From positions 170,939-234,938 of the forward strand of contig JAOASE010000006.1 of the NCBI GenBank assembly GCA_025210155.1: 64,000 nt of DNA, in the 5' to 3' direction. Positions 45,201 to 48,200 of the stretch are shown piece by piece. The position numbers are program-made. Position 1 is the stretch's first letter, and every line of letters begins with the position of its first letter. Source of the DNA: Alphaproteobacteria bacterium (GTDB lineage: Bacteria > Pseudomonadota > Alphaproteobacteria > Rs-D84 > CASDRH01).

Positions 45201-48200
45201 AAACAAGAGTAAAATAGCTTTTTCTTGCTTTTCTAGTTGCTTTTAATTTATTGATTTAAATATATAAACTGAATTGTTTTATTGGAAATTAAAATCTGCT
45301 TTTTAATAGGTTTACTTCTTTAGCGAAAGAGTTGTTTTCATCCATTAATTTTTCTATTTTTTTAATAGAATGAATTATTGTTGAATGATTTTTTCCTCCG
45401 AAAGCAGTACCTATTTCAGTAAGAGATTTATTAGTTAATGTTTTGCAAAGATATATTGCTATTTGTCTTGGCATGGCAATTTTTTTAACCTTTGTAACAT
45501 TACTTAATTCTGAAGTTAGTAAATTATAATGTTTAGCAACTTCTTTTTTGATATCTGAGATTTCTATTTTTGAACCAAAATCAACAAACATATCTTTTAA
45601 TAGATTATTTAAGAATGATATAGAAATATCGTTTCCAGAAAGGAATGAATAGTTAAATATTCTTGATATTGCCCCACTTAATTCTCTTAAAGATCTTTTG
45701 AAGTTAGTTGCTAGATAGTCAACTATTTCTGAAGAAATATGGAAGTTTAATTCTTCAGCTTTGTTTTCAATGAATTTTTCTTTTAACTCTTTGTCTGCAG
45801 TTTGAATGTCAATTAGAAGCCCAAAAGATGTTCTAGTAATTAAATCTTTATTAATCCCTTCTATTAAGAAAGGAGATACATTTGAAGATATTATAACTTT
45901 GCCATTTTTTTCAACGATATGGTTTATTGTGTGCATAAGTTCTATTTGAGAAGCTTTATTTGTTATAATATACTGAAGATCTTCAATTATAAGTAAATCG
46001 TTATTTCTTATAGATTGCTTGAAACCAATAGTATTATTTTCTTTAACACTCTTTCTATATTCAAATGCAAATTTTTCTGCGCTTAGACACTTAACGTTTT
46101 TAGATGGGTTAAGTTTGGCAAATTCTGTTGCGAAAGCGTGTAATAAATGAGATTTTCCACATCCTGATGGACCATATAAGTAAGTCATATTCATATTATC
46201 TGTTAAAAGTTTTCTTTTGAAAGCAGATATTGCTATTTCATTCGATTTTGATTCGATAAGATTATCAAATGAAAAAGATTCTTTTACACCAGAGATTTTA
46301 CCTATTTTTGTTAGGTTTTGACTTTCTGTTCTGATTTTTATTTTTGGCTCAGGAGTTGAAGAGAAATTTTCTTCTTCCTGTTCTTTTTTTCTAAAAGTAT
46401 CTGTGAAGTTGATGTTTTCTATGTTTGCATCAATATCTCTTAAACAAGAAAGAATAATTTCTTTGTAATTTTTTTCTACCCAGTCAGATGAAAATTTAGA
46501 AGGAGTTGAGATTGTGATAGAGTTATCTTTTCTTTCAACAATTCTTAATGGTGATATCCAACTGTTAAAAGTACTTTGGTCCATAGTGGATCTCAAAGCT
46601 TCTTTTATGATATTCCATTTAGTGTTAAAATTACTCATTATTATAAGTCTCTCTTCCTTATAAGATAAAAATACATTATTTAATGATTTTTAAGATTGTC
46701 TTTCCATTTCCATTGTGGATTTGAATAAAATATAGTGTAGGAGTTTGGAAAAATCAAAAGAAAAAAAATAATTTTTTACTTGACCATTTTTTACTTAAAT
46801 TTTTCGAAATTATCTTTGTTTTTTTCTTGATTTTAGTTGTGTGCTAAGGAAACTCTAGGGATTTAATTTCGATTCTAATTTGATTCGTAAACGATTCGAA
46901 TTTGATTCGGAATTTTATGACTTTTTTAAGTCTTTGAATTGTCTAAGATTCCTAAATCTTCTAGTATTATTTGAGTGGTTTTTCTACCGTTAAATTCTGA
47001 TATTTGAATTTTTCCAATAGCAAGGAAATTTTTACCTATATTTTTTTCTAAAGTTTCTCTTATTTTACAAGGAGTTGAGTTGAATATCATGCCTGTAATA
47101 CTACCTCCGCTATCAGATGAGAAGATAGCTTTGGCAACACCATTTTTTAGTGCTTGAAAGTTCATTAATCTAGCGTTGGAAATTGCAAATTTTGGTTCGG
47201 GGTTTCCGATTCCAAATGGAGAAAGTGATTCGATTCGCTCAATCAATTTAATGTTTATTGCTTTTATGTCTAATATACTAGATATGTTTATTACTTTTTT
47301 GAAATTTTTATTCTCTAGGAAGTTTGATATATCTGTTTCTATAGCTTTTTTAAAATCTTCTTCATTTTTTTCTTCAAATGTGAAGCCGGCTGCCATTTTA
47401 TGACCACCACCTTCTTTTAGGATTCCTTTTTCTTTTGCATTTATTATAGTTTGACCAAGGTTATAATCTTTTGAAGATCTTCCAGACCCGTTAAGGATGC
47501 CGTCTTTTATTTCAGTAGCTATAAATGTTGGAAGGTTATACATTTCTTTTATCTTGCTGGCAACAATACCAATTATTCCTTTATGCCAATTTTTAGATTT
47601 TACGAATATGTATTGTTTTTCTAACATTTCTGGAGTTATTTGAGAAATAGCTTCTTCAAATATATTTCCTTCTATGCTTTTTCTTTCAGCATTATAGTCA
47701 TTTAATTTTTTAGCATGGTTTTCTGCTATAATTGGATTGGTACATGTTAATAGTTTTGCACCTATTGATGAATCACCAATTCTTCCTCCAGCATTTATTC
47801 TAGGACCAAGGATAAAGCCAAGACTATATACAGAAGATTTTTTGCTTTGTGATATTTCAGACAGAGCTTTGATTCCTATATTTTCTTCTTTATCTATGAT
47901 TTTTAAACCTGTAGAAACTATAGATCTGTTTAAGTCAGTAAGAGGCACTGAGTCACAAACGGTTCCTAGAGCAACTATATCTAATAAATTTATTAGATTA
48001 GGTTCTTCTATTTTACTTTCATTGAAGTAATTTTCTTTTTTAAGAGTTGAGTTTATAGCAATACATACAAAGAAAACAACGCCAACAGCAGCTAGATAAT
48101 GGAAATCTCCATCACTATCTTCTCTTTTGGGGTTTACTGTTGCGTAAGAGTTAGGTAGTTGAGAGGCTTGGTTGTGATGATCTATTATTATAAGATCTAC

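Follow-up and report, generated by a model that had tools for sequence, protein, structure and literature searches.

A phased array of GANTC sites upstream of dnaA in a small-genome alphaproteobacterium, a possible methylation- or GcrA-type regulatory element

Introduction

In Caulobacter, the timing of dnaA transcription is still called unclear; a single GANTC site upstream of the -35 element has been implicated, and the activator is described as unidentified (PMC6393856). The Caulobacter sigma-70 cofactor GcrA favours methylated GANTC in the context TGATTCG, which is the MEME consensus of GcrA-bound sites, and more broadly in the context YGAKTCK (PMC4647560). CcrM is reported to be present in all Alphaproteobacteria except Rickettsiales, Magnetococcales and Hodgkinia, and in the orders that carry it GANTC is depleted at least two-fold and enriched in intergenic DNA (Gonzalez et al., PMC3973325). 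The promoter regions of the repABC/repE modules in Alphaproteobacteria have a high density of GANTC, and a link of initiator expression to CcrM/GcrA has been proposed for them (bioRxiv 10.64898/2026.05.29.728657). Here we describe a tandem array of GANTC sites with an 11-bp period upstream of dnaA in a 64,000-nucleotide stretch of alphaproteobacterial DNA (assembly GCA_025210155.1, contig JAOASE010000006.1, positions 170,939 to 234,938 of the forward strand; the whole stretch is hereafter the window), and weigh what this array may be.

Results

Direct reading and a script both place the starts of four GATTC pentamers at 46871, 46882, 46893 and 46904 of the window, with a period of exactly 11 bp, confirming the four exact units at 46871-46914 (+ strand) that were given in a preliminary description of this DNA. 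The units read GATTCTAATTT, GATTCGTAAAC, GATTCGAATTT and GATTCGGAATT, and their cores, CGATTCT, TGATTCG, CGATTCG and TGATTCG, are each followed by an A/T-rich spacer. The array can alternatively be parsed as two 22-bp units, CGATTCTAATTTGATTCGTAAA at 46870-46891 and CGATTCGAATTTGATTCGGAAT at 46892-46913, which are identical at 19 of 22 positions (2 x 22 nt at 90% in the repeat search). Tandem Repeats Finder (TRF) reports a period of 11, 4.5 copies and a score of 45-49, in a row that covers 46860-46908. Both direct reading and TRF reveal a decayed fifth unit, GATTTAATTTC (GATTT in place of GATTC), in phase with the array at 46860-46870 (+).

The window holds 145 GANTC sites, or 1 per 441 bp, close to the roughly 1 per 400 bp estimated earlier; this is 0.88 times the mononucleotide and 0.72 times the dinucleotide expectation, and an order-3 model accounts for the count. 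At least four GANTC within 40 bp were found in 4 of 300 sequences simulated with an order-1 Markov model and in 2 of 300 simulated with an order-3 model, and arithmetic from the site counts gives an expectation of ~3e-7 per window for four exactly phased GATTC. The sites of the array are, however, not independent, because a 22-bp duplication is involved. Clusters of this density are rare in the simulations (~1%). Between the two 11-mers that make up a 22-bp unit, 5 of 11 positions differ, none of them in the GATTC core (p = 6/462 = 0.013); the two 22-mers have three differences, again all outside the cores (p = 0.14); and in every unit the core is preceded by C or T and followed by G or T. This core-sparing pattern is a stronger argument than the phasing, as duplication does not explain it. 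The array is also the sole repeat in the window with at least four copies and a period above 6 (TRF). The array is real and non-random.

All four units fit YGAKTCK, and two are exactly TGATTCG. In the window as a whole, YGAKTCK is matched by 11 of 16 non-tRNA intergenic GANTC versus 28 of 127 coding ones (Fisher p = 3e-4). When duplicated units are counted once, 9 of 10 independent intergenic cluster sites fit YGAKTCK versus 20% of coding sites (binomial p ~4e-6, our own arithmetic). Twelve of the 16 non-tRNA intergenic sites fall into three clusters (of 4, 3 and 4 sites) plus the single site at 45138. Clusters of at least three GANTC within 65 bp number five in the window, a figure reached in none of 300 order-3 simulations. 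Five of the six copies of TGATTCG lie between 45138 and 47232, around dnaA.

The second intergenic cluster, TGATTCGATTCTAGATTCG at 28161-28178 (+), has three sites, two of them fitting YGAKTCK, and lies between a divergent ORF (27611-28123, -) and a GH108 gene (28251-28802, +), where it overlaps a promoter-like site on the - strand; the preliminary description had correctly noted it, as 28162-28178, in the promoter region of the GH108 gene. The third has four YGAKTCK sites, TGATTCT, TGAGTCT, CGAGTCT and CGATTCT, at 9094-9158 (+), inside the probable replication origin described below. A GATTC cluster had also been placed inside recJ at 47246-47256; the doublet exists, but its position is 47227-47236 (GATTCGATTC, within TGATTCGATTCG at 47226-47236, +, in the 3' part of the gene). 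Two further boxes have a partner in register that is not GANTC. One is a degenerate two-unit box in the dnaA coding sequence, TCATTCGATTTTGATTCG at 46238-46255 (+), which reads TCATTCG-N4-TGATTCG; the other, in the dnaA-dnaN spacer at 45138-45154 (+), has TGATTCG and, 10 bp later, TGATTTG (TGATTCG-N3-TGATTTG). These near-copies could be decayed sites, or they could hint at a motif that is defined by a protein rather than by a methyltransferase.

Words that contain GATTC show a strong bias towards the + strand regardless of gene orientation. The ratio GATTC:GAATC is 94:35 in the window and 86:25 to the right of 9.3 kb (7th of 378 5-mers after correction for base skew). For AGATTCT:AGAATCT the ratio is 35:6 in the 82 kb that we searched (the window with 9.3 kb to its left and 8.6 kb to its right, 8% of the ~1.05-Mb genome) and 28:2 to the right of 9.3 kb, where AGATTCT is ~4x over-represented. 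In the 9.3 kb left of the window GATTC:GAATC flips to 7:16, and AGATTCT has no clear flip. Of all 24 pentamer patterns of the 'each base once' type, GTNAC shows the strongest depletion in the window, with an observed/expected ratio (O/E) of 0.33 overall and 0.08 in intergenic DNA, which may reflect avoidance of a restriction site.

The array lies 233-276 bp upstream of the ATG of dnaA (45289-46638, -; MCT4552551.1; Pfam DnaA_N, Bac_DnaA and Bac_DnaA_C), the gene that it presumably regulates, in the 287-bp recJ-dnaA spacer (46639-46925), with 11 nt between the recJ stop and the array start. Pfam identifies recJ (46926-48707, -), upstream of and co-directional with dnaA, dnaN (43972-45084, -), and, directly past dnaN, rpoD and the alphaproteobacterial cell-cycle gene trcR/DUF1013. 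The G+C content of the window is 28.8%. Judged by consensus match only, the best sigma-70-like promoter for dnaA is TTGATT-17-TATATT (46729-46757, -), and a weak alternative, TAGAGT-16-TAAAAT, lies directly downstream of the array. Directly downstream of the -10 hexamer of the former is a DnaA-box-like sequence, AAATCCACA (46714-46722, -), with two mismatches to TTATCCACA; this is the weak site (TGTGGATTT) that had been placed near 46710, and it might possibly serve dnaA autoregulation. The spacer has no better DnaA box, and none with one mismatch or fewer. No Rfam family, terminator or credible small ORF was found in the recJ-dnaA spacer, and the z-score of its RNA fold, -2.2, is explained by GANTC being near-palindromic. 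A LexA box (GTTC-N7-GTTC) was considered for the array and excluded, as the cores read ATTC both here and in the metagenome contig Ga0310122_10041577 (see below).

The likely chromosomal origin is a 347-bp A/T-rich spacer at 8983-9329, ~38 kb from the array, flanked by dacA and virB3/virB4 and lying in a zone where the GC skew changes sign. It has four DnaA-box-like 9-mers: three exact copies of TTATCAACA, at 9063, 9207 and 9218 (the last pair 11 bp apart), and one CTATCAACA at 9171-9179 (-), so that boxes span 9063-9226, besides the four YGAKTCK sites. A strong promoter-like sequence on the - strand, TTTACA-16-TATAAT (9310..9283), would read through this candidate. Left of the window the GC skew has strongly negative values, and further right it is positive, with the cumulative G-C minimum at ~0.9 to ~9 kb of the window, and no sign change was seen at dnaA (46.8 kb). 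The 9.3-kb left extension (L015) carries rpsO, truB, mutS, uvrD, parB, parA and gidB.

We scanned metagenomes for four GATTC at 11-bp spacing (4 x GATTC-N6) and obtained at least 120 loci. Perfect 11-bp minisatellites with arbitrary sequences, and members of one repeat family at contig ends, make up the majority of the matches listed; therefore, the pattern alone is not diagnostic. Pfam searches of the flanks of other core-conserved arrays among the matches listed gave nothing relevant. One match, locus L101 (Ga0310122_10041577; 66% G+C), has a DnaN 51% identical to that of the window, and we regard it as alphaproteobacterial because this DnaN has its best PDB matches in 5wce, 6izo and 6deg. 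Upstream of its dnaN are TGTGGAAAA, TGTGGAATC and TGTGGTATAAT (DnaA boxes, three in the spacer, and a -10-like hexamer), and directly upstream of the DnaA boxes are five 11-bp units, GTGATTCGGAG; the 3' end of dnaA is ~340 bp further upstream. The units have CGAATCA on the strand that is sense for the gene downstream, which matches the orientation of the array in the window. We take this parallel as suggestive and not as proof.

The L101 spacer (1787-2390) also has an inverted repeat of ~23 nt, GGGTCCTTCCGGTCCAAATTGAA, at 2323-2300 with its partner at 2054-2080, enclosing ~220 bp in the manner of a small inserted element. The repeat family at contig ends, GATTCGAGTAC GATTCGACTAC GATTCGACTAC GATTCGGCTAC, occurs at the ends of dozens of Ga01263xx metagenome contigs (L019-L138, for example L025, L026, L034, L060 and L138), with flanks devoid of long ORFs, and is evidently a multi-copy element that breaks assemblies.

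Judged by its sequences, the organism is an alphaproteobacterium: TrcR/DUF1013 is present, the NCBI name is 'Alphaproteobacteria bacterium', and the sequences nearest to its RpoD are alphaproteobacterial. By RpoD, the closest sequence is 55% identical. Of the best 120 matches, those with a genus name come from Rhodospirillales-like genera and none from Rickettsiales, and there are also alphaproteobacterial metagenome-assembled genomes (MAGs). In the best-scoring RpoD relatives with contigs the trcR-rpoD pair is kept, and dnaA is not beside it. Distant alphaproteobacterial MAGs, those from the gut among them, have conserved the pair (41223-43878 in the window; L010-L014) at RpoD identities of 52-58%, with ruvA a few kb off in the longer loci. 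A scan of genome contigs for DnaA returned only Omnitrophota and Planctomycetota at 26-36% identity, and three loci of DnaA relatives (P0002, P0005 and P0025) had neither synteny nor arrays. Further contigs with an identical DnaA are of the same strain, with an identical spacer, and a sister organism (TrcR 97% and MreB 99% identical) is represented by short contigs only.

Genes of type IV secretion (virB3, virB4 and a virB11-like ATPase) are scattered at 9330-12111 and 19060-20025 in a region that is otherwise housekeeping; together with a contig of 1.05 Mb and a best DnaA match of 34%, this suggests a host-associated, fast-evolving lineage. At the right end, RhuM-like, phage-integrase and EMARD_N genes (L142 11435-14565, equivalent to 63.6-66.7 kb of the window) are probably parts of one small integrated element. 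They run past the right end of the window, and the RhuM-like gene has its start at ~63.6 kb, within the last ~400 bases.

Discussion

Our tentative reading, which we regard as quite possible rather than probable, is that the array is a methylation- or GcrA-type cis-regulatory element for dnaA. It draws on the match to the GcrA consensus, the divergence that spares the cores, the co-occurrence of such sites at the probable origin, the concentration of TGATTCG around dnaA, the array in L101, and the precedents discussed below. The preliminary description had already suggested a methylation-sensing element; the YGAKTCK context, the intergenic clustering (including that in the probable origin) and the L101 parallel favour this suggestion, but GANTC is not depleted, as detailed below. 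Methylation of the sites, CcrM and GcrA in this genome, which protein reads the array and whether transcription would rise or fall are our inferences, and the mechanism would run as follows. Four (formerly at least five) GANTC sites would face approximately the same side of the helix, and all have the YGAKTCK/TGATTCG context that a methyl-reading cofactor of sigma-70, GcrA, favours. Ahead of the replication fork the sites would be methylated on both strands, and passage of the fork would leave the array hemimethylated early in S phase, because dnaA is ~38 kb from the presumed origin. A reader, either GcrA or another protein that binds several same-face sites cooperatively, would then shift its occupancy and, with it, the transcription of dnaA. 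Synthesis of the initiator would thus be coupled to the state of replication, an idea already put forward for Caulobacter dnaA and the one GANTC that precedes its -35 element.

A number of observations weigh against this reading, among them those that concern CcrM and GcrA themselves. No methyltransferase of the CcrM type (PF01555 + PF18755, N6_N4_Mtase/RAMA) was found in the 82 kb searched, whether by Pfam, by tblastn with CcrM or in the gene lists of the flanks (neither the 9.3-kb left nor the 8.6-kb right flank has a methyltransferase), and GcrA (PF07750) was found neither among the window ORFs by Pfam nor in either flank. We also searched for CcrM indirectly, with the Caulobacter protein as the query (identical to PDB 6pbd), both for homologues and among representatives of clusters at 50% identity. 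The best 120 homologues were all from Caulobacterales; the search of representatives gave 710 clusters below 1e-30, and the 20 AT-rich CcrM-like representatives that were checked included none from this genome, though the gene could hide inside a 50% cluster. One candidate, P0389, was rejected, as it comes from unrelated samples. The base composition points the same way. In a comparison with expectation, split by coding and intergenic DNA as the preliminary description had envisaged, GANTC is not depleted in 73 kb (overall O/E 0.90, with 0.88 for coding sequence and 1.21 between genes; rank 17 of 24 comparable pentamers), and in loci of the nearest relatives its O/E is 0.37-0.65. This signature points away from CcrM and resembles that of the CcrM-less Rickettsiales. 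The small genome (~1.05 Mb) may have lost the CcrM/GcrA module, like Hodgkinia.

The array itself adds to these objections. It lies ~115-160 bp upstream of the -35 element of the best, and sole decent, promoter-like match; in Caulobacter, GcrA responds to sites near -20 or from +2 to +30, and its regulon does not include dnaA (PMC4647560). In part the array is a recent 22-bp duplication, and two-copy duplications of 10-29 bp are frequent in the window. The nearest non-self DnaA in a protein search is 34% identical, too distant for a comparison of the array. The L101 array, finally, is a young, near-perfect repeat that was found a posteriori among at least 120 mostly irrelevant matches.

An alternative, which we consider rather unlikely, is that the array is an operator for a sequence-specific DNA-binding protein and independent of methylation. 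OmpR/PhoB-family operators consist of tandem direct repeats with a period of 10-11 bp; each dimer covers 20-22 bp, and the promoter is preceded by several units. The protein would most likely be a winged-helix response regulator of the OmpR/PhoB/CtrA class, two dimers of which, on the two 22-bp units, would activate or repress dnaA. The geometry suits such a protein (a direct repeat with an 11-bp period, 2 x 22 bp, a 7-nt conserved core and an A/T-rich spacer), as does the location of the array upstream of, and not within, the promoter-like sites; the missing GANTC depletion fits a genome without CcrM, and the variants that are not GANTC yet stand in register with true sites (GATTT at 46860, TGATTTG at 45148 and TCATTCG at 46239) would fit a motif that a protein defines. 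To our knowledge, however, the core matches no consensus of the class (CtrA, TTAA-N7-TTAAC; Pho box, CTGTCAT), which counts against an operator of this kind. TTAA-N7-TTAA is not enriched in the window (17 versus 17.8 expected) and is absent from the spacer, the window has no second copy of the composite 22-bp box, and 11-bp phasing is missing from the other two clusters, which have spacings of 5/7 and 15/25/20. Moreover, the agreement of the cores with TGATTCG, the GcrA/CcrM consensus, would be a coincidence in two unrelated organisms. It is also conceivable, but quite improbable, that the GATTC cores are secondary and that the array is an intrinsically curved element in which AATTT every 11-12 bp bends the DNA and, by itself or with the help of a nucleoid protein, stimulates or silences the dnaA promoter. 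AATTT/AAA tracts are indeed in phase at 46865, 46877, 46888, 46899 and 46911, and a position upstream of promoter-like sites would suit such an element, but from unit to unit it is the tracts that vary, and the GATTC cores stay the same.

The array could instead have no function at all and be the product of neutral slippage in an A/T-rich spacer (11 -> 22 -> 44 bp), with GANTC incidental to it. Its two copies of a 22-nt unit at 90% identity, the dozens of two-copy repeats of 7-29 bp that TRF finds in the window, and the at least 120 metagenome matches, which show that GATTC-headed 11-bp tandem repeats are common as generic minisatellites, would all be accounted for. What makes this explanation improbable is that all substitutions between units spare the GATTC cores and keep the flanks within Y and K (p ~0.013 x 0.14), that the extended motif recurs at other intergenic clusters and around dnaA, and that no other repeat in the window has at least four copies and a period above 6 (TRF). 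Least probable of all, and to our mind very remote, is that the recJ-dnaA spacer is the chromosomal origin, with the repeats as initiator sites or iterons. The spacer does adjoin dnaA, is A/T-rich and has the one weak DnaA-box-like 9-mer at 46714-46722, but this single box has two mismatches, the GC skew keeps its sign at 46.7 kb with its cumulative minimum far away at ~0.9 to ~9 kb, and the four-box candidate at 8983-9329 is far better; the array is therefore not an origin element. The protein-binding iteron of the preliminary description finds nothing in its favour beyond the geometry of the repeats, and no plasmid-type rep gene is nearby, the neighbours by Pfam being recJ, dnaA and dnaN. 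We conclude that the array is neither oriC nor a set of iterons.

If the array is a methylation- or GcrA-type element, its closest described counterpart is the CcrM-type site at Caulobacter dnaA (the 'methylation ratchet' of Collier et al. 2007, as summarized in PMC6393856), which likewise lies upstream of the promoter of an origin-near gene and changes its methylation state early in S phase. According to the same summary, Caulobacter has one GAGTC close to the -35 element, whereas the window has four or five GATTC in phase, putatively methylated and separated from the best promoter-like site downstream by more than 110 bp. The probable origin of the window, with its four-site GANTC cluster, resembles the Caulobacter Cori, which has five GANTC sites (PMC6393856). 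The methylated promoters activated by GcrA (Haakonsen et al. 2015, PMC4647560) share with the array the extended motif TGATTCG/YGAKTCK. Their sites, however, are single and read by a sigma-70-bound monomer, and no tandem phased arrays are described there, in contrast to the multi-site, phased arrangement seen here. The repABC/repE modules are, like this locus, GANTC-dense upstream of a gene for a replication initiator, but they belong to secondary replicons with RepC initiators, and regular 11-bp phasing is not reported for them (bioRxiv 10.64898/2026.05.29.728657).

The 10-11 bp direct-repeat period is common to the array and the operators of the OmpR/PhoB family, although the core matches no known box of that class. 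Should the genome lack CcrM, the array would show that a TGATTCG element can survive, or be put to new use, as a common site of protein binding. In E. coli, SeqA sequesters GATC clusters at oriC and at the dnaA promoter. Several methylation sites on one face of the helix suit a cooperative reader of hemimethylation in the E. coli SeqA/GATC system (PMC2691817), and the array, with its 11-bp period, has this same-face arrangement, although SeqA works with GATC and Dam in another lineage, the motif here is GANTC, SeqA is reported to be absent from Caulobacter (PMC6393856), and Alphaproteobacteria are not known to have a SeqA homologue, though no search for one was made in this genome. What is unusual about the array is its phasing: GcrA, the known reader, binds single sites as a monomer, and same-face spacing is a hallmark of cooperative readers like SeqA (PMC2691817). 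A bolder extension, which we think has only a small chance of being right, is that phased TGATTCG arrays are an undescribed class of alphaproteobacterial control elements at replication genes (dnaA here, dnaN in L101), which would offer a same-face platform for a cooperative reader of GANTC methylation, either several GcrA molecules or a functional analogue of SeqA, that switches the expression of initiator or clamp after the fork has passed. A multi-site phased motif stands at dnaA of a deeply divergent alphaproteobacterium with a reduced genome, and again at dnaA-dnaN of a high-GC one; if it acts in this way, a counterpart based on GANTC would stand beside the gammaproteobacterial Dam/SeqA system, until now the one documented case in which methylation at replication genes is read cooperatively.

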